Virus record (IMG/VR): IMGVR_UViG_3300030097_000283
Span: 1-27,207 of that record
Strand: one strand, 5' to 3'
DNA from: a virus
Taxonomy: Duplodnaviria > Caudoviricetes
Length of the DNA: 27,207 nt
Each line of letters starts with the position of its first letter. Position 1 is the stretch's first letter. The translations under genes were made by a program, and so were the position numbers. Under the pieces are notes generated by a model. That model searched no databases. It saw nothing but the letters and a program-made list of their open reading frames with translations, and was not told the DNA's origin. This document shows, piece after piece, positions 1 through 21,405 of this stretch.

Positions 1-48
1 GTCTTTCTCCTTTGTTTGGTTTCTTCAATTCATTCCATGGCTACGCCA

Positions 49-71
49 CCGCTCATTTAGTTTCGTTATGC
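49..71 (+). other. Right half (L'-spacer-R') of an attC-like site; left half would lie outside the window
   Basis: CCGCTCATTT-AGTTTC-GTTATGC; R'-like GTTATGC at 65-71 overlaps the stop codon of ORF 66..266; shares TCATTT with the site at 207-315. Confidence 0.55.
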
Positions 72-266
72 TTTTATGAATATTAAATGTGTGTTTTTGT
101 CTGGCGAGCAATCAGGAGCCTTTTCGCACATCCGATCATCATTATTGAACTCGCAGTTGTAACACCCGTTGAATTTGCGAACCTTTTGCGCCTTGTAACC
201 GTTTTCGCATAACCATGAAATTGAATCTACCTCGTTGCTCGCTGGCGCTTTCGTCTCTGTGCTCAT
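66..266 (-). CDS. Small Cys-rich hypothetical protein (cassette-like gene)
   Basis: 66-aa ORF with AAAGGA RBS; CxxC...C....C pattern; bounded by attC-like sites. Confidence 0.75.
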   Translation of the reverse strand: MSTETKAPASNEVDSISWLCENGYKAQKVRKFNGCYNCEFNNDDRMCEKAPDCSPDKNTHLIFIKA

Positions 267-315
267 AATTTATTCCTTTCCTGTTTTGCTCGGAGAATCA
301 TTTCGGGCATTATGC
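207..315 (+). other. attC-like imperfect inverted repeat (109 bp)
   Basis: GCATAAC-CAT-GAAAT(T)GAATCT(A)CC ... GGAGAATCATTTC-GGGC-ATTATGC: R''/R' pair, unpaired central spacer, two extrahelical bases on the left arm; R' reads ATT instead of GTT. Confidence 0.6.
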
Positions 316-513
316 GCCAAACATATCTTGCGCCCATTGGTCAACATCATCGTCTTCTAGTTGATAATATGATTCAAGAAGTTCCGTAATTCCCAAGATA
401 AAGTTTGGGTTTATGTACTCAAACTCCGCTTTGGCCTTCGATTTAAGCAACTCCATAATCCCAACATGAAGCGCATCATCATTATCATGTTTAATTTCTA
501 TTTCCATCGTCAT
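310..513 (-). CDS. Acidic hypothetical protein
   Basis: 67-aa ORF with GGAGG RBS 8 nt upstream. Confidence 0.75.
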   Translation of the reverse strand: MTMEIEIKHDNDDALHVGIMELLKSKAKAEFEYINPNFILGITELLESYYQLEDDDVDQWAQDMFGA

Positions 514-538
514 GTTGGTTGCCTCCCTCTTAAATGTT

Positions 539-558
539 AAAGGCTCCTTACGGGAGCC
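539..558 (-). terminator. Possible intrinsic terminator after the DUF3127 gene
   Basis: GGCTCC-CGTAA-GGAGCC followed by TTTAACATTT on the minus strand; short U tract. Confidence 0.5.
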
Positions 559-587
559 AGTCGTACTACCTAGCAGGAGAACTAGAC

Positions 588-971
588 CTAAAAAGGGATT
601 TCTGAGTCGATCTGAGGCGTTTCGTTGTTTACCTGACCCAAGGCATCGTTTACAGCTCCAATGAAGTCAGAGGGTGCATTCTGTGGCTCTGAAGGGGCGT
701 CCTGAGCTAGCACGTCGATCTTCCAACAAACTAGATTATTGAAGTGCCGGTCATTGTAAGCGCGGCCTCGGATGTCAAAACTAACATCAACCTCTGTTTC
801 AGGTGCTAGACCGTCCAGCATACCTACCTTGTCCTGCAACGTTTCAAAGATGATATCCTGTGGATATTTGCCATCCTCAACTGTAACGACAAACTCGCGC
901 TTCGTGAATCCACTGCTAAACGTCTGCGCCTCGTTAACCTGCTTAATCTTACCTTTAATTTCGTATACCAT
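588..971 (-). CDS. DUF3127-family OB-fold, probable single-stranded DNA-binding protein
   Basis: GF.KREFVV...KYPQ.I.F...V.VSFDIRGR.YN.R.FNNL.CWKI pattern; acidic tail ending EIPF like SSB; AGGAG RBS. Confidence 0.85.
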   Translation of the reverse strand: MVYEIKGKIKQVNEAQTFSSGFTKREFVVTVEDGKYPQDIIFETLQDKVGMLDGLAPETEVDVSFDIRGRAYNDRHFNNLVCWKIDVLAQDAPSEPQNAPSDFIGAVNDALGQVNNETPQIDSEIPF

Positions 972-986
972 ATCTACTTTACTCCT

Positions 987-1181
987 TTATTTTTTTAAAA
1001 ACATACCTATAGCAACAATAATGACAATAACAAAGATTGCAAGCATAAGCGCAATCCACATTGGTGCCAACACCCACAACCAAGGCCACGCTATAACCCC
1101 AACCAATTTCAACACAATGAAGACAACGGTCAATAAACCGAAAAAACCAATACCCCCTGAACTACTACTTGAACTACTCAT
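987..1181 (-). CDS. Small two-helix membrane protein, common phage family
   Basis: GIGFFGLLTVVFIVLKLVGVIAWPWLWVLAPMW motif; poly-Ser N-terminus. Confidence 0.8.
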   Translation of the reverse strand: MSSSSSSSGGIGFFGLLTVVFIVLKLVGVIAWPWLWVLAPMWIALMLAIFVIVIIVAIGMFLKK

Positions 1182-1184
1182 ATC

Positions 1185-1349
1185 CTAATCCTCCATTTGT
1201 TCGTTGATAATCTTAACCTTCTCGCGCCTTCGTCGACGCCTCATTCTCAATTTGATAGCTGAAGATACACCAGCTCGCTTTAAATAGCAATAATATTTCT
1301 TTGCAAATATTAAGTCAACCTCATCCCCCGTTTTAAGCTTCTGTTTCAT
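1185..1349 (-). CDS. Small basic hypothetical protein (start moved from 1415 to 1349)
   Basis: MKQKLKTGDEVDL...RMRRRRRRE; upstream part of the track ORF overlaps a better-supported ORF (1333..1479). Confidence 0.6.
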   Translation of the reverse strand: MKQKLKTGDEVDLIFAKKYYCYLKRAGVSSAIKLRMRRRRRREKVKIINEQMED

Positions 1350-1479
1350 CTCTAATAAACTCCCAGCATTCCTCATAGGTTCCTGTAAATATCTGCCGGT
1401 TATAAGCCTCACCATTATCTAGTCGGTCAGGCACAACCACCTCGCTCTTATTCTCAAATATCAATTCCTGAATTTTCAT
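1333..1479 (-). CDS. 48-aa hypothetical protein, not in ORF track
   Basis: MKIQELIFENKSEVVVPDRLDNGEAYNRQIFTGTYEECWEFIRDETEA; GGAGGG RBS. Confidence 0.65.
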   Translation of the reverse strand: MKIQELIFENKSEVVVPDRLDNGEAYNRQIFTGTYEECWEFIRDETEA

Positions 1480-1501
1480 CTCAATCCCTCCACTAGAAAT
1501 A

Positions 1502-1578: not shown

Positions 1579-3294
1579 TTATTCCCACCCATCTTCTGAT
1601 CGTCTATGGACGCCTCGATATCTCATTCGCATATCCATTAAATCCATTTCCACCCAATTCTCCGGTTCTTGTCCGTGTGAATATTTATCACAATTAACCA
1701 GTAGAGTATTATGATCGTTCTCACCGAAGCAACAACATATTGCCTGTTGGCAATTCTGCTCAATGGCTGACGTGTAAATGGCGTCTTCCTTGCTAGGCAT
1801 GTTGTATTTCATCTCCTTTTCAGCAATGCGCCTTGATTGAGTTGTGATAATCCCCATACGCTCTTCCTCGACTAAATACCGCTTAAAGTCGCTACAGTTG
1901 GATATGATGCTATCAGTCATTGACCCCATTCGATTCATCTTTGATATATAATCAATGGCCACAACATCAACCCTGCGCTCCTGGAAGTCCTCTATTCGGT
2001 CAACCTCTGCCTTTAGCTTCTCGATGTTCAATGAAGCAATCTTAGGAAGGAACACATTCTCAATCCGTGGGACAGTCACCTTTGGCACACCGTTGCGGAT
2101 GGCGTTCTCTGCGTGTGTAAAGCTCATTTTGTTATGATAGGCGATACCACGCATGCCAAGCTGATACTCTGACAGCTCAAGATCGAATATGGCAAAGTTT
2201 AGATTCTCATAGAAGAATGGTATGTTTGCAAGCACTCGACTTTTACCAACGCCAGTAGGAGCTATAATCATCATTAAATCGGCAGGACTAACTCGCACAT
2301 CCATTTCACGCCCAAACATTCGAGACAGATTTAGCCCGTCATCGTCGGTCATGTTCTCCGCTTTAATATAGGCACTCTGACAAACGTCTGTCATTACATT
2401 TAAGCTCGCACGGTCTACACCCCTCTCAAGTGATGGTGCTTTGATTATGCTGTCCGTAAGCCAGTTTGTTGACCTATCGACACCACCCTCCGCAAGCATA
2501 TCCGCGAAATCATGCCCGCTATACTGTGGGTACTTCCTCACAAACTCATCCGGAACCGTGACAGTTCTTAATCGCTTGACCTTACCCCTTAAGCCATCGC
2601 TGACGAGTTTGAGCCACTTTTGCCCCCCCTCATCTGCGTCTGGCATTAACACGACATCTTTGTCTGCAAGGTTTTCTGCGTACTGATCCAACCAACCACT
2701 ACTGCCGTTGGTGAATGTGGTTCCAATAAAGCCACACTCGATCAAAGCATCTGCAGTCTTTTCACCCTCACAGAAGCAGATGAAATCTAACCCGCTCTTT
2801 GTAATGGCAGGAAGATTATACATCACGCGAACATCACTAGGCAAAGAATGACTCCCATTTGGCAACTCAGGAATACACTCCTTACGCACTTTATCACCAT
2901 TACTCTTGTCAATCCGCTTAATCGTGTAAGCTAAACCACCGTCTGCCTTGTAATACTTATGTTCAATAGGCTCTCCCACCTGAGTATAAGGCTTTTCAAC
3001 CTTTTTAACTGGTACATCATCATTGAGATTATACCAATCCTTCAGCATGATAAACGCCTCTTGTACGCCAACGCCCTCCTTAAGAGCTACAAAGTCAATG
3101 ACACTCGAGCCTTTGCCGCAGCCTCTTGTGTGGCACGTCCACTTGCGCCCCTGGTCATGCACAGCGAATGAAGCCTTATTATCTCCTCCGTGAATAGGGC
3201 AGGCCATTCTTGAGCCCTTGGTTAGTTGATGCCCATAACGCTCAATTACTTTTGACAATGGAACTCTTTGTTTTACGTCTTCGTATGAAATCAT
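1579..3294 (-). CDS. Fused DNA primase-helicase (CHC2 zinc finger + TOPRIM + SF4/DnaB-like helicase)
   Basis: CPIHGGDN...W.CH..GC zinc finger; CEGEK.AD and PDADEGG TOPRIM motifs; Walker A APTGVGKS, DLE, IDY, SQ-like and IEQ motifs. Confidence 0.92.
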   Translation of the reverse strand: MISYEDVKQRVPLSKVIERYGHQLTKGSRMACPIHGGDNKASFAVHDQGRKWTCHTRGCGKGSSVIDFVALKEGVGVQEAFIMLKDWYNLNDDVPVKKVEKPYTQVGEPIEHKYYKADGGLAYTIKRIDKSNGDKVRKECIPELPNGSHSLPSDVRVMYNLPAITKSGLDFICFCEGEKTADALIECGFIGTTFTNGSSGWLDQYAENLADKDVVLMPDADEGGQKWLKLVSDGLRGKVKRLRTVTVPDEFVRKYPQYSGHDFADMLAEGGVDRSTNWLTDSIIKAPSLERGVDRASLNVMTDVCQSAYIKAENMTDDDGLNLSRMFGREMDVRVSPADLMMIIAPTGVGKSRVLANIPFFYENLNFAIFDLELSEYQLGMRGIAYHNKMSFTHAENAIRNGVPKVTVPRIENVFLPKIASLNIEKLKAEVDRIEDFQERRVDVVAIDYISKMNRMGSMTDSIISNCSDFKRYLVEEERMGIITTQSRRIAEKEMKYNMPSKEDAIYTSAIEQNCQQAICCCFGENDHNTLLVNCDKYSHGQEPENWVEMDLMDMRMRYRGVHRRSEDGWE

Positions 3295-3983
3295 TTTCGC
3301 TTCCCTTCGTTTGTTTTTGCGATCTCACCGTTAGTTATTGCGTAACCAATCCAAGTCCTCAAGTCTAATTTCCAGTTTTTTACCTTCTTGCCGTTAGCTT
3401 TAATCCATTCAGCCTCTGTTCTAGATATTAGATAACGCTCAGAATAAGCTAACCCTCTTGTGGGAGTAACCCTTAAACCTTTCGATTTTAAAATTAATTT
3501 CAACTGATCTTGTATTTCCTCCTCACTTGGTGGAATGAATGGCTTTTCGTCTTCTATCTTCTTTTCTTTCTTATCTGTCTTAACTGTCTTAACCTTCTTC
3601 TTAGTGGTTGCTTGTTGGTTGCTCGTTGGTTGTTCGTTGGTTGTTTGTTGGTTAGTCGTTGGTTGTTTACCCCCTTTGAATACGTCATAAACACTTGAAT
3701 CACAAAGGGTTGCGGTGGTTCCCTTGGTGGTTGATTTGGTGGTTACATACTGGTTAGCCTTGAGCCAGTTGAGTGCGGTTCTGTGTTGCTGTCTAGTTAA
3801 ACCACAAGATCTATAGTCTCCAATGTACGCCTGACCCTGGGTTAATCCTGTAATTTTACAAGAGTCTTCACTCCATCTAGCACGAATGGCGATGAGCGTT
3901 AACAACATAAAAGCGTTTGGCCTTCTAACTATCATATTTTCAAGGTCTGCGCACCGATTTAACTTTATATAGCCGCTACTCAT
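3291..3983 (-). CDS. Phage replication initiator protein (lambda O-like HTH)
   Basis: N-terminal SGYIKLNR, HTH region, low-complexity T/N/Q linker, C-terminal W....G..VKNWK...RTW motif; ATGA overlaps on both sides; directly upstream of the helicase. Confidence 0.78.
   Translation of the reverse strand: MSSGYIKLNRCADLENMIVRRPNAFMLLTLIAIRARWSEDSCKITGLTQGQAYIGDYRSCGLTRQQHRTALNWLKANQYVTTKSTTKGTTATLCDSSVYDVFKGGKQPTTNQQTTNEQPTSNQQATTKKKVKTVKTDKKEKKIEDEKPFIPPSEEEIQDQLKLILKSKGLRVTPTRGLAYSERYLISRTEAEWIKANGKKVKNWKLDLRTWIGYAITNGEIAKTNEGKRK
3604..3667. repeat. 12-bp-period GTTGGTT repeats inside the initiator gene (candidate origin iterons)
   Basis: gttggttgctc / gttggttgttc / gttggttgttt / gttggttagtc / gttggttgttt. 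Confidence 0.6.
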
Positions 3984-4372
3984 CGGTAACACCCCCCTGA
4001 TACGCCCCAAGAGTCACTCCATCCTTGATGATTTATATTTATAGTAGGCTTCTCTTTAGTTTTACCCGTTATATTTTTCTTTGGGTTCAGCGTACATATT
4101 AAATAAATTTCAAGTATATGTGCGTCAGATATATTAGCGGGTATGTACTTCATGGAGATTGAAGATGTGGAGGTTTCGTAGCGTTGTTTATAGCTAGTTT
4201 TTATCCTAGATCCTAAGTTGCCACTAACACCTATATACTCAAGTTTTGAGCCTCGCCAGAATGAGTAAACACCAGATACGCCCTTTAATCTCTCAACTTC
4301 TAAGGAAAAGCAGTATTTAAAATTATATTTATCTACTTTATCGATTGAATCTGTCTGGGTCTTGTGTGTCAT
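3980..4372 (-). CDS. GIY-YIG family nuclease
   Basis: SGVY.F.......YIGVSGNL..RI, later conserved E (ILEIYLI) and P..N. Confidence 0.82.
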   Translation of the reverse strand: MTHKTQTDSIDKVDKYNFKYCFSLEVERLKGVSGVYSFWRGSKLEYIGVSGNLGSRIKTSYKQRYETSTSSISMKYIPANISDAHILEIYLICTLNPKKNITGKTKEKPTININHQGWSDSWGVSGGCYR

Positions 4373-4555: not shown

Positions 4556-4591
4556 ATTGTTTCATGTATCCCCTTTCTAGTCTAGTATGAT
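4556..4591 (-). promoter_or_regulatory. Promoter with ATCATACTAGAC motif, copy 1 (replication genes)
   Basis: ATCATAC-TAGACT-17 nt-AACAAT, directly after a terminator. Confidence 0.65.
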
Positions 4592-4631: not shown

Positions 4632-5588
4632 TTAGTTTGTAATGTTTAGATGTAACAGCTTACGGTCATCCTTATCAATCAGATTAACGCGCCCACGTGT
4701 CTCAGCTCCACAATCACCGCACCGATACTTCTGGAACTTGCTAACCTGAGTGTAAGCAAACCCCTTCTTGCGGATGTTAGTAGACCCACACCGGCACACA
4801 TGACCAAGTTTGGGATCTGTGTATAGATTGAAGTTAACATGTTTATCATCCCAAGGAGCAATGATCGTATAAAGCTCCTCAAGCGACAGGACATCATCAC
4901 GGTTATACTCCTCCATCTCCTTCCAGGCTTCAATGTTATCGGCCAGACATTCTTTCCAAAGCTCAAAGCCTGAAAAGTTGGCATGCTTAGTCTTCTTGTA
5001 TTTCTTGCACAATTTATCGGTCATGTATTCGAGCTTGTTTGACGTAAAGGCAAAGGCTCGTTTTGCAATCCGAAGCGTGTCGATGTGCTTGTATCCTGAT
5101 GGCGGTTGATAGCCATTGATCACGAAACGAGCATTTAGCTTCTTTGAATCGAAGTTAATACCGTTCTGTGTGATAACAACATCAGCCTGATCGAGAAGCT
5201 CCCAGATGCCCTGCAGAAGCCCCTCATCACGAAAGCCCTTGCTAGTGTCATCTATCACCCCCCGGAGATCTTCATACATAACCTCGTCCTCTCCTAGCCA
5301 CTTAGCAGCATAAGATAAGATGAACCAATCCTCTTTGATCATGTTAAGACTTACGTTCTGTTTCCATAGAGACCAGACGCGGGCAAGGATGGGAGATGTT
5401 TCGATATCAAACACAAGCACTTTAGGCAGATGAGCGTTTTTATCGATAATCACATCAACCTCCCCATACTTACGATTGATTCTTTTAACTGTTTCGAGAC
5501 TCTTGCCTAGCATTCGAGCGGCACTATTAACCCCATATTTCTCAGTCAATTCCCTCACGTCTTTTATTGTTTTCTTACTGTACGCCAT
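4632..5588 (-). CDS. RNase H-fold DEDD 3'-5' exonuclease with N-terminal HTH-like segment and C-terminal Zn ribbon
   Basis: FDIETS, NG..FD, HIDTL, YNRDDV motifs; CRCGS...YRCGDCG. Confidence 0.85.
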   Translation of the reverse strand: MAYSKKTIKDVRELTEKYGVNSAARMLGKSLETVKRINRKYGEVDVIIDKNAHLPKVLVFDIETSPILARVWSLWKQNVSLNMIKEDWFILSYAAKWLGEDEVMYEDLRGVIDDTSKGFRDEGLLQGIWELLDQADVVITQNGINFDSKKLNARFVINGYQPPSGYKHIDTLRIAKRAFAFTSNKLEYMTDKLCKKYKKTKHANFSGFELWKECLADNIEAWKEMEEYNRDDVLSLEELYTIIAPWDDKHVNFNLYTDPKLGHVCRCGSTNIRKKGFAYTQVSKFQKYRCGDCGAETRGRVNLIDKDDRKLLHLNITN

Positions 5589-5590
5589 AA

Positions 5591-6022
5591 TTATTCTCCT
5601 TCTTTCTTGTTATTGTATTCTGCAATAGTCTCTGCAGCGGTTTCTTTGTACACCATAACGACTCCTTTTCCTAGCTTATTAACGCTATATTCAGCCCGTG
5701 GTATAGATTGAAATATCTTTGCATAAGCAAATTCCCCCCACGAACCTGCATCGTCACCAGGCATCAATCGGAAACTGCCCATATACTCAACGACAAACCG
5801 AGCCTTCTTTGCTCGCCTGATTCGCCCATAGTTTCGGTGATACTCTCTCCGGCTCTCTTTGTTGTCAGAAAACCACTTGTCATGTTTTGCTTTTCGCTCT
5901 TCTGGCGTCTTGGTTACTGGTCGGCCTAGTTTTGGCTTTGATTCACGCTCACCCCAACAGGTACAGCACAGGCCATCAGACTCAGCGAATATAAGTTTTT
6001 GACACGCCTTGCATTGTTTCAT
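5591..6022 (-). CDS. Hypothetical protein, N-terminal CxxC...CxxC and basic region
   Basis: 143-aa ORF abutting both neighbours; GGAG RBS. Confidence 0.7.
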   Translation of the reverse strand: MKQCKACQKLIFAESDGLCCTCWGERESKPKLGRPVTKTPEERKAKHDKWFSDNKESRREYHRNYGRIRRAKKARFVVEYMGSFRLMPGDDAGSWGEFAYAKIFQSIPRAEYSVNKLGKGVVMVYKETAAETIAEYNNKKEGE

Positions 6023-6307
6023 TTACTCCGCCTCCAACGGTTCGACACCGTATAGAGCAAGACTCCACTCACGCACAATCTTTTCAGCCTCTGCGTAGGT
6101 GGCATGGTTTGCCGTTTCATGGAAGTGGGCATTTGCATATCCAATCTTCATGGTTAATGTGCCATAGTATTCGTCGCCCATTGTGCATACTTTGTACTCT
6201 GGGTATTCGGTGGCACATGATCCGCAGATATTCATATCCGCGCTGACTCTGCTTGTGTCTGGGTCGCGAATTTCATCGCAGTCTTTTACATCACATTCGT
6301 TGCTCAT
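6023..6307 (-). CDS. Cys-rich hypothetical protein (start MSNECD at 6307)
   Basis: GAGGAG RBS; ATG 1 nt after the upstream stop; the longer track ORF overlaps the pentapeptide gene. Confidence 0.7.
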   Translation of the reverse strand: MSNECDVKDCDEIRDPDTSRVSADMNICGSCATEYPEYKVCTMGDEYYGTLTMKIGYANAHFHETANHATYAEAEKIVREWSLALYGVEPLEAE

Positions 6308-6308
6308 A

Positions 6309-6986
6309 TTAATACTCCTCCGCTTCTCGTTTTGTAATAAAGAAATGAACGCCCTTCGTACACTCGACTCGTATATCATCGTCGTACCCGTCCGGCCTGT
6401 AAACTTCCCCCTTGATGTACTTTCCACCCCTTGAACTAACCCCGCCTTCACTGAGAACTTTTACGTATTCAGCCCTGCATTTTCTGCCAATGAGAGACGA
6501 AGTACGCTTTGCTTTTGCTGGTATCTGTAGCTTGACAATAACCCCGCCTTTTAATTTCTTCCATCCAATAAACGCCCCCTGATCCGGCACGATTTGGAAG
6601 TGTGGGAGGATTGCTCCGTCGAGATTTGCTCCGTCGAGATTTGCTCCTTCGAGATTTGCTCCTTCGAGATTTGCTCCCGTGAGATTTGCTCTTCTGAGAT
6701 TTGCTCCCGTGAGATTTGCTCTTCTGAGATTTGCTTCTTCGAGATTTGCTCCCGTGAGATTTGCTCCCGTGAGATTTGCTCTTCTGAGATTTGCTTCTTT
6801 GAGATTTGCTCCTTTGAGATTTGCTCCGTCGAGATTTGCTTCAAAGAGATTTGCTCCGTAAAGATATGCTCCGTCGAGATCTGCTCCCATGAGATTTGCT
6901 CTTTCTCCTCCTTTTTCGCCCCTCAACCATAGACGGTGTTTGTCGATCGCTTCGTTTATTTTTCTTTGGTTCATTGGCTGGTTCAT
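6309..6986 (-). CDS. Pentapeptide-repeat protein with DUF5758-like C-terminal domain
   Basis: About 19-20 A(N/D)LxG-type repeats; C-terminal FIGWKK...IP..AKR.S..GRKCRAE...EC..G.HFFIT..EA..Y. Confidence 0.9.
   Translation of the reverse strand: MNQPMNQRKINEAIDKHRLWLRGEKGGERANLMGADLDGAYLYGANLFEANLDGANLKGANLKEANLRRANLTGANLTGANLEEANLRRANLTGANLRRANLTGANLEGANLEGANLDGANLDGAILPHFQIVPDQGAFIGWKKLKGGVIVKLQIPAKAKRTSSLIGRKCRAEYVKVLSEGGVSSRGGKYIKGEVYRPDGYDDDIRVECTKGVHFFITKREAEEY
6611..6900. repeat. 15-bp tandem repeat (GAGATTTGCTCC...) encoding the pentapeptides
   Basis: Near-perfect 15-nt periodicity visible directly. Confidence 0.95.
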
Positions 6987-7670: not shown

Positions 7671-7835
7671 ATGAGTGAGAAGCAAATAACTGTCTGTGTA
7701 CGTATTCCGAACGACTGGAATGAGACACTAAAAAGGCATGTAAAGACGATTCAACCTAGCATGTCGAAAGAAGCGTTGATCTATCGGCAGATTGCGGTGC
7801 TGGTCAAGAAGGTTCGCAAGATGGAGAGTGTGTAA
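7671..7835 (+). CDS. Ribbon-helix-helix (Arc/CopG-like) DNA-binding protein, not in ORF track
   Basis: MSEKQITVCVRIPNDWNETLKRHVKTIQPSMSKEALIYRQIAVLVKKVRKMESV; alternating beta strand then two helices; AAGGAG RBS; TAATG overlap with the next gene. Confidence 0.7.
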   Translation: MSEKQITVCVRIPNDWNETLKRHVKTIQPSMSKEALIYRQIAVLVKKVRKMESV

Positions 7836-8545
7836 TGATAAAAGTAGAAAGCCCAAAATATTACTGGGAATTAGAGCAGAATACACCGGAATGGCTAAAA
7901 GCTCGTCTAGGCATCATCACTGCGAGCGAGGTCAATAGTATTGTAACACCAAAAGGCGCGATAAAAACCGGAAAAGGTGTCGATACATATAGGAATCAGA
8001 AGGTTTCTGAGATTGTCACAGGTCGAATTGCTGATCATTTCGAGTCATATGCCATGATGAAAGGGCATATCGGGGAGGTATACGCCATTGAAAGCTACTC
8101 CGAGAACTACGCTCCCACTCAATCTTGCGGGTTCATCACGCGAGAAATTGAAGGTGTAACGATTGGCGCATCACCTGACGCCATTGTCGGAGAGGATGGA
8201 GGTTGTGAGGTTAAAACCCTGATGCCTCATCTTCATGTCCAGACGATACTAGCTGATGCTGTACCAGAGGATCATATAAACCAAATACAGACGACCCTCT
8301 TAGTTTCAGGCCGTAAATGGTGGGACTATATTCAGTTCCAACCAGGCATGAGCTTATTTGTTAAAAGAGTGTTACCTGATCCAGTGCGTCAAGAGTTAAT
8401 TATAAAGGCGGTAAAAGAATTGAATGTTTCCATTGACGCCTCGGTGAAAAAATATAATAGTTTGGCAAGTAAGTTAGTTCCTACTGAATTTGTTGACATG
8501 AATATCGGTACCGAAAAAGAAATACAAATAGGAGAACAAGAATGA
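7835..8545 (+). CDS. YqaJ / lambda-exonuclease family recombination nuclease
   Basis: EQNTPEWLKARLGIITASE, GASPDA, EVK, QIQ, WWDYI motifs. Confidence 0.92.
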   Translation: MIKVESPKYYWELEQNTPEWLKARLGIITASEVNSIVTPKGAIKTGKGVDTYRNQKVSEIVTGRIADHFESYAMMKGHIGEVYAIESYSENYAPTQSCGFITREIEGVTIGASPDAIVGEDGGCEVKTLMPHLHVQTILADAVPEDHINQIQTTLLVSGRKWWDYIQFQPGMSLFVKRVLPDPVRQELIIKAVKELNVSIDASVKKYNSLASKLVPTEFVDMNIGTEKEIQIGEQE

Positions 8546-17017: not shown

Positions 17018-17053
17018 AATTTAAAACATCTTGCTTTTATAGTCTAGTATGAT
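17018..17053 (-). promoter_or_regulatory. Promoter with ATCATACTAGAC motif, copy 2 (fibre/spike module)
   Basis: ATCATAC-TAGACT-17 nt-TAAATT. Confidence 0.75.
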
Positions 17054-21369: not shown

Positions 21370-21405
21370 AATGTAATTTAATATGCCCTTAGCGTCTAGT
21401 ATGAT
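21370..21405 (-). promoter_or_regulatory. Promoter with ATCATACTAGAC motif, copy 3 (tail tube operon)
   Basis: ATCATAC-TAGACG-17 nt-TACATT. Confidence 0.75.

Follow-up and report, generated by a model that had tools for sequence, protein, structure and literature searches.

Integrons are known as anti-phage gene banks of bacteria, and mosaics of accessory genes in phages are usually ascribed to illegitimate or short-homology recombination. CALINs, i.e. at least two attC sites close together without an integron integrase, have been described also in phages: the main-text portion of Qi et al. (2023, PMC9892861) reports 17 of them and recombination by IntI1 of five out of six phage attC sites tested. 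In the phage CALINs TJE1, PH101 and P12002L, attC sites of one orientation lie between small phage genes, with no intI on the phage. The phage studied here presents a similar picture. Its DNA, a stretch of 27,207 nucleotides referred to below as the window, is the entire contig of a tailed phage with a primase-helicase, an initiator-like gene, exonucleases, and head, portal and tail genes.

There are also differences from these phages. The TJE1 cassettes are sense (2/2), whereas those of this phage are antisense and two of them start inside their site. In PH101 three annotated genes between the sites run antisense to the tested sites, but they start outside the sites; this arrangement is absent from the main-text portion of PMC9892861 and may be shown in its figures and Supplementary File 1. 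Natural exchange of cassettes in populations was seen for this phage, unlike TJE1, PH101 and P12002L. Phage attC clusters are already published; antisense cargo that starts inside the site appears to be the new part, and a literature search of sources other than subscription journals found no report of antisense phage cassettes or of starts inside attC. A preprint on Xanthomonas (10.1101/2025.06.18.660453) mentions single cassette genes facing the opposite way. In locus L195, 920-3010 (Pseudoalteromonas phage H101, KR534323, 75.9-78.0 kb), four attC-like sites were seen on the plus and, between them, three annotated genes on the minus strand, and two of the cassettes hold, in addition, unannotated sense ORFs behind a repeated leader.

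The sedentary integrons of Pontiellaceae, which consist of IntI and attC sites of 87-90 nt, share with this phage the geometry of the boxes, the spacers, and the R'/R'' match within the own cassette. A model based on Pontiellaceae sites detected two sites of this phage and many of related phages. These integrons differ in that their genes are sense (30/31) and intI is adjacent, while the sites of this phage are 57-109 nt long and more divergent. Insertion by IntI at short GWT motifs outside att sites (attG; Loot et al., bioRxiv 10.1101/2022.09.11.507474), as that preprint describes it for bacterial chromosomes and without orientation bias, can be linked to this phage by analogy.

We propose, with a probability of roughly 0.7, that positions 36-315 of the window are the right end of a phage attC-type cassette array with inverted genes, whose units are likely moved in trans by the IntI of the host, probably one of the Pontiellaceae. 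The array itself is real: attC cassettes with inverted cargo, no integrase found, and two sites in the window that have decayed more than the others. The case draws its strength from the flanking sites and from natural recombinants; that IntI is the catalyst at the phage sites we infer.

Two sites at the left edge of the window

The features of the window that bear on the array are the following.

1-71, plus strand: site A; tip 36-48, right arm 49-64, R' GTTATGC 65-71, left arm decayed
7-11, minus strand: RBS of the next gene leftward, within the site A stretch; its ATG lies just left of base 1
65-68, plus strand: crossover point G/TT of site A, to the left and right of which natural alleles differ
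66-266, minus strand: ORF of 66 aa, running antisense to the site and ending with a TAA formed by the TTA (66-68) of site A R'
66-309, plus strand: cassette B, 244 bp; begins with TTATGC, ends in its own site B, the R'' of which complements the R' at the cassette start
207-315, plus strand: site B, 109 nt, attC-like; R''-spacer-L''-long loop-L'-spacer-R', two unpaired bases in the left arm, ATT in place of GTT
272-283, minus strand: likely RBS of ORF 66-266, purine-rich, within the 25-nt unpaired loop of site B
310-513, minus strand: gene Y, 67 aa; stop in TTA 310-312, leading gene as counted from the promoter side, lacks its own site

A sequence-only reading of this DNA had described an attC-like fold at 207-315, and all its letters and coordinates (R'', spacer, L box, extrahelical bases, R') are present. 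R'' (207-213) is followed by a 4-nt spacer (214-217) and an L box in which 218-221 pair with 300-303 and 223-224 with 298-299; further pairs (226-228/294-296 and 230-231/292-293), separated from the box by an A.A mismatch (225/297), bring the L stem to 11 pairs. The unpaired bases are T222, the ninth after AAC, and, 7 nt further on, A229. In Pontiellaceae host sites T is likewise the most frequent first unpaired base (18/35); these 18 sites, like site B, have A on the bottom strand instead of the usual G. A 5-nt spacer (304-308) leads to R' (309-315, ATTATGC). Bouvier (2009, PMC2727003) presents as site features a central spacer that is unpaired and extrahelical bases on the R''-L'' arm; site B has both, its spacers being 4 and 5 nt long. 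Of the RYYYAAC/GTTRRRY boxes it has the AAC, but ATT stands at 309-311, so that the bottom strand has a T.G wobble. A GTT box is carried by a sister allele of site B that has a loose end after 304.

The hairpin of site B was no more stable than those of shuffled sequences (z -0.11 to +0.70). The drawn fold is not the predicted minimum of the bottom strand, and the recombinogenic fold had a predicted probability of about 0.001, compared with 0.008-0.15 for the three host sites tested. The arm-pairing score was matched in 3 of 1000 shuffles of window 1-600, and a shuffled whole window is expected to give 0.25 hits at this score (40 shuffles). From the window alone site B is suggestive of an attC and not proven to be one. 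The shuffle-like stability and the 0.25 expected hits, together with the stop codon contained in both boxes of the window, would agree with a chance resemblance in which the boxes are just TAA stops read backwards and differences between strains fall at gene ends since no exchange other than that of a whole gene survives; in view of the sites described in the next section this is very improbable.

An Rfam search of the window returned nothing relevant. Two covariance models were built: R1 from 40 bacterial attC sites (35 of the 53 sites of Pontiellaceae integron loci, four cyanobacterial sites and the dfrA14 site), and R2 from the same sites plus those of the phage contigs L122 and L125, with the window sites left out, so that R2 was trained partly on other sites of this phage. 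R2 found 207-315 end to end as its sole match in the window (17.6 bits, E 0.01), but R1, made of bacterial sites only, missed site B and neither model detected site A. A sign of low sensitivity is that both models found nothing in PH101, whose sites are validated. R1 also missed three TJE1 sites and the dfrA7 site. Among 21 mostly phage sites, compensatory changes were kept in 13 of 17 pairs, in an alignment fitted to the model and therefore leaning towards it.

A half-site with an R' complementary to the R'' at 207 had been claimed as well, and R' 65-71 is indeed its exact complement. The unit 66-309 is what is expected of an integron cassette: it is bounded by G/TT, its own R'' complements the R' at its start, and it is mobile as a unit, being absent from the overlapping contig L122 (see below) and joined to a different left site in the public runs X4 and X5. 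ORF 66-266 starts in the loop of 207-315, as had been stated, and codons 1 to 19 come from the loop and the left arm of site B. The 66-aa protein had no Pfam match and one weak PHROG match; a search among proteins of 36-116 aa found only itself, and its look-alikes in the Atlas are unnamed viral clusters. Locus L001, which a search of viral contigs offered as a relative, turned out to be spurious.

Gene Y is replaced in other alleles by gene Z, with the first seven codons alone in common (loose end before 492 in 4/4 runs); no attC-like site is present at this swap (window 492-513; L122 6196-6643). Nearby, L122 carries a 40-bp duplication (about 6203 and 6443) giving two genes with the same C-terminal stretch, and a contig of run X9 skips L122 6230-6567. 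A scan for promoters and terminators gave no clear signal for the array; a GC-rich hairpin at 542-558 on the minus strand, directly upstream of the gene Y RBS, was not called by the terminator scan.

The array beyond the left edge and its natural variants

L122, an overlapping metagenome contig of another strain, was found by a 24-nt pattern; its base 6131 corresponds to window base 1. It holds three further sites.

L122 5446-5502, same strand as the window sites: site 0; GTT box, R1 8.6 bits (not significant)
L122 5673-5731, same strand as the window sites: site 1; GTT box, R1 31.8 bits
L122 5817-5925, same strand as the window sites: site 2; GTT box, R1 31.6 bits

The sequence-only reading had predicted more sites past the left edge, and with these three the array comprises five sites (0, 1, 2, A and B) of one orientation in about 1 kb. 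Its prediction of a covariance score was borne out by sites 1 and 2, both scored by R1, which contains bacterial attC only; these two have the boxes, the unpaired base and 9/9 core pairs of attC. With filters off, R1 gave a partial match of 20.8 bits to site 2. Sites 0, 1 and 2 are the only arm-pairing hits of score 9 in L122; in 5401-6300 three sites stand against 0.009 expected, a number reached in 0/1000 shuffles of this 900-bp stretch. In the four intervals of this phage, R'' matches the R' at the start of its own cassette in 4, 4, 3 and 4 of the outer four bases; at least three of four matched in 4/4 intervals of this phage, 15/17 phage intervals and 25/31 host intervals. No attI was seen by eye to the left of site 0. 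With several attC sites close together and no integron integrase found, the locus is a CALIN, about 0.5 kb of the genome being unseen. A chance origin of the boxes is contradicted by these three additional sites within the next 700 bp, two of them at about 32 bits with an independent model.

L122 also contains the sequence left of position 1, where the matching arm of site A was expected. A decayed arm was found there, but not an intact one: the best left-arm candidate, L122 6100-6120, which falls in codons 4-10 of the next gene, reads ATC instead of AAC, was equalled by 2.1% of shuffles, and has a fold probability of 2e-6. Over 46 nt, the tip and right arm of site A share about 80% identity with a complete 56-nt site of phage L182, and a site of phage L198 matches too. 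Since these phages hold matching complete sites, site A can be regarded as a decayed member of a real site family, and this homology argues again against chance. Both site A and site B in its ATT form have probably decayed or become semi-fixed. The 23-nt half-site of site A, used as query, retrieved no viral loci, and the 120 loci matching a 15-nt left-arm pattern, none similar to the window, were all judged chance hits.

The runs containing window DNA are marine (X1-X11). Assembled contigs, not reads, of seven public runs were compared, X1, X3, X4 and X5 with the window and X1, X3, X6 and X9 with L122. Runs with a share below 0.2 (X12-X21) were left out, and uncovered parts in X3, X4 and X5 were not scored as deletions. 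Window 1-68 was identical in 4/4 runs. Past 68 a different continuation was found in 4/4 runs, before 64 a different left neighbour in X4 and X5, and in X9 a different left neighbour ahead of the R' box of site A. All four distinct loose-end places in window 1-315 are at boxes (64, 68, 210, 304), and two lie outside (492 and a joint at 1005-1060). The latter, from one X1 contig, is a 54-nt skip within a small membrane-protein gene (987-1181).

In L122, site A GTTA leads directly into gene Z and cassette 66-309 is missing. Moreover, the left site can be A or C, a different, hairpin-bearing site, and the right part cassette B or gene Z; all four combinations occur, with CGTTA alone in common (C with B by a single contig of depth 2.3 found in X4 and in X5, two runs that are possibly one data set; X1 is possibly the source of the window itself). 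Site 0 has four different continuations directly after GTTA, and in X1 a different site is joined exactly at the G of site 1, the box being all that the two share. In X6 site 2 is joined to cassette 1, either as a reordering or in a 423-bp circle. The prediction that related phages gain or lose genes at G/TT thus held for the most part: sister strains gain, lose and reorder units mostly there. Breakpoints follow GTT even in cases of a stop codon 8 or 32 nt off or of a gene that reads through, and chance resemblance, on which breakpoints in L122 at a GTT without a stop codon would not be expected, is already largely refuted by the breakpoints, the shuffle counts and the R1 scores.

A very short unit (about 24 nt from G/TT to the next R''-like box), probably an empty cassette, was seen in X1 after site 0 (L122 5500 on) and after an allele of site B (window 304 on). 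A weak observation is a copy of the site B left arm, diverged at 12 of 84 nt, after a different gene body, with the same frame open for the 10 visible codons.

Among the 20 loose ends and joints listed, out of 25 in the L122 comparison, 10 are inside the array and 10 outside. Seven of the 10 inside lie within 5 nt of G/TT (four boxes, about 6% of the stretch), for which a binomial test gives 2e-7, an indicative value only, as it assumes an independence that related strains do not have. The remaining three comprise two inside an L' arm (the X1 joint 5709-6179 and the X6 loose end 5710), off G/TT and with 7 shared bases, and one at 5665. Because 13 of the 20 listed breakpoints are off the R' boxes (10 outside the array, two in the L' arm, one at 5665), the region around the array is mosaic in general, and the joints inside L' arms suggest a second, homology-driven route besides exchange at G/TT.

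These joints speak for an explanation that does without integrase, in which the attC-derived relics serve as short-homology linkers and genes are swapped by replication slippage or by recombination functions of the phage, such as the YqaJ-type exonuclease (7835-8545, YqaJ domain detected) with its neighbour gene. The 7 bases shared at the joint of site 2 and cassette 1, the 10 of 20 listed breakpoints outside the array, and the decay or poor folding of sites A and B would agree with it, and Loot et al. (2017, PMC5371416) describe how small cassettes were lost without integrase between sites of 83% identity. It does not account well for the four-way reassortment of A and C with five shared bases only, for the X1 joint at site 1 with nothing shared beyond the box, for four continuations of site 0 right past GTTA, or for the compensatory changes in 13/17 pairs mentioned above. 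As the general cause of the exchanges we consider it unlikely, though it has to be reckoned with.

Gene orientation, integrase and likely host

To assign orientation, the longest ORF between neighbouring sites was used, and host gaps above 1300 nt were skipped. The phage count covered this phage, L125, L182 and L187; the duplicates L184-L186 and the single-site phage L183 were left out, and L198 was not counted. Antisense ORFs were found in 15/17 phage intervals (4/4 in this phage and 11/13 in L125, L182 and L187, two of the L125 intervals not being clean cassettes) as against 1/31 in the host. The claim that the ORFs run opposite to the site strand was therefore correct for all four intervals, and the cassettes depart in this from integron cassettes with sense genes (30/31 in the host). 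The array genes in L122 (49, 52 and 59 aa), also on the minus strand, had no PHROG match.

Two other statements on the genes hold in part. The gene stops were said to be the TTA of each R', which is true for ORF 66-266 and ORF 310-513, but in L122 the second gene reads through the R' of site 1 and the other two stop 8 and 32 nt from G/TT. Starts inside the site loop were found for ORF 66-266 and for the second gene of L122, which starts inside site 2, but not for every gene.

Other phage arrays with attC sites of the Pontiellaceae type and antisense genes were seen in L182 (1884-2820), L187 (114-1974), L198 (923-2937) and L125 (14887-17560). L198 has five sites on the plus strand, one ending in ATT, and genes on the minus strand; one of these has its start inside a site, whose left arm it reads in the frame that ORF 66-266 uses. 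Near-identical attC sites are common to L125, L182, L187 and L198, and host arrays, in turn, have site families nearly identical to those of L125, L182, L183, L187 and L198.

A tblastn search with a host IntI as query, which found the class 1 control at 4e-93, gave no IntI-like match in the window and L122, in agreement with the earlier statement for the window. About 0.5 kb is unseen; L122, which holds terminases, seems to begin in the portal gene where the window ends, and the unseen part probably lies within this gene. The array is flanked by phage genes, on the left by a PHROG-503 gene and the small terminase and on the right by the gene for a single-strand-binding protein; with these flanks and no IntI-like match it is not a complete integron.

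The likely host was sought through the primase-helicase. Its closest named relatives are in Pontiella sulfatireligans (43%) and Pontiellaceae B1224 (35%), and for this reason the host is likely a member of Kiritimatiellota, family Pontiellaceae, an assignment based on prophage proteins of 35-43% identity. A search for intI in the host had been suggested, and 23 of 54 genomes of the Pontiella family, some incomplete, have an IntI above the TIGR02249 cut-off. DNA of the array was absent from 201 genomes of the host class. Among cultured phages there was no relative of window 1-1500 except for one membrane-protein gene, and the DUF3127 protein and P0004, used as queries, retrieved zero viral loci.

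Site-specific recombination at G/TT could also be due to a non-classical enzyme, either another tyrosine recombinase of the host or one from a co-infecting or resident phage. The related prophage-like loci L123 and L124 have weak tyrosine-recombinase matches (23% to IntI), about half of the genomes of the family, which are incomplete, showed no IntI, and the host is so far a candidate. No array was found within 10 kb of L123 or L124. The anatomy of the sites, i.e. R and L boxes, two unpaired bases on R''-L'' and 4- and 5-nt spacers, is that of the sites beside host intI, and the site families shared by host arrays and five phages likewise speak for the classical enzyme. Another recombinase is accordingly regarded as improbable.

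Some features elsewhere in the contig were recorded. Three copies of the 12-mer GTCTAGTATGAT lie in the window (4580-4591, 17042-17053 and 21394-21405; 0.18 expected, 0/100 shuffles), each directly upstream of a minus-strand gene, and one copy in L122 (about 100-111) ahead of the portal start; the 12-mer is possibly a phage promoter or operator. The initiator-like gene (3291-4010) holds six 11-bp direct repeats (3594-3668), a possible replication origin; GC skew follows the coding strand, and no origin position can be derived from it. In 6551-6961, 15-bp tandem repeats encode a pentapeptide-repeat protein with DUF5758, and another frame is open for 97 codons too.

How the cassettes may move, and what this would mean

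In the proposed action of host IntI, the minus strand would fold while single-stranded; it is mRNA-like and at the same time the bottom strand that recombines. IntI would bind the folded strand, cut at G/TT and excise the cassette, which could then be re-inserted at another site or at a bare GTT. Inverted in this way, the cassettes would have their genes read from the phage's own leftward transcription. The short sites 0 and 1 look fully competent, while the long sites 2 and B appear to have taken the RBS and start codon into their loop and to fold poorly. Insertion at bare GWT motifs could account for the exchange at the decayed site A and for the start of the array without an attI, and short-homology recombination between similar arms may contribute some of the joints. 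Should the origin lie inside the initiator gene (3291-4010), the lagging-strand template would be the minus strand. Loot et al. (2017, PMC5371416) describe higher excision for a bottom strand that serves as the lagging-strand template, and a site that was still active at a fold probability of 1e-5.

The weakness of site B (missed by R1, z about 0, fold probability about 0.001, ATT at the crossover) and the lack of an intact left arm in site A count against the action of IntI as proposed here; alleles diverge at the GTT of site A despite this lack.

A wider idea, which we put forward tentatively and hold to be possible rather than probable, is that phages of integron-bearing hosts have domesticated the host integron. 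Their cassettes would be mirror images, so that one strand both codes and recombines and is probably also the template for the lagging strand, IntI would be hijacked during infection to reshuffle accessory genes, and the attC hairpin would serve as a portable RBS, start codon and N-terminal leader for unrelated gene bodies in frame. The same cassettes would be silent if captured by the host integron.

Wild strains of this phage reassort whole mini-genes at the integron crossover, and no integrase was found on the phage. Tools that search for attC will under-call such arrays, because scores are poor for sites into which a gene start has been taken up. With sites 0, 1, 2, A and B, a candidate host family and a standard assay at hand, the question is directly testable. 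If host IntI does act here, integrons would also serve phages, with a built-in inversion of the strand.
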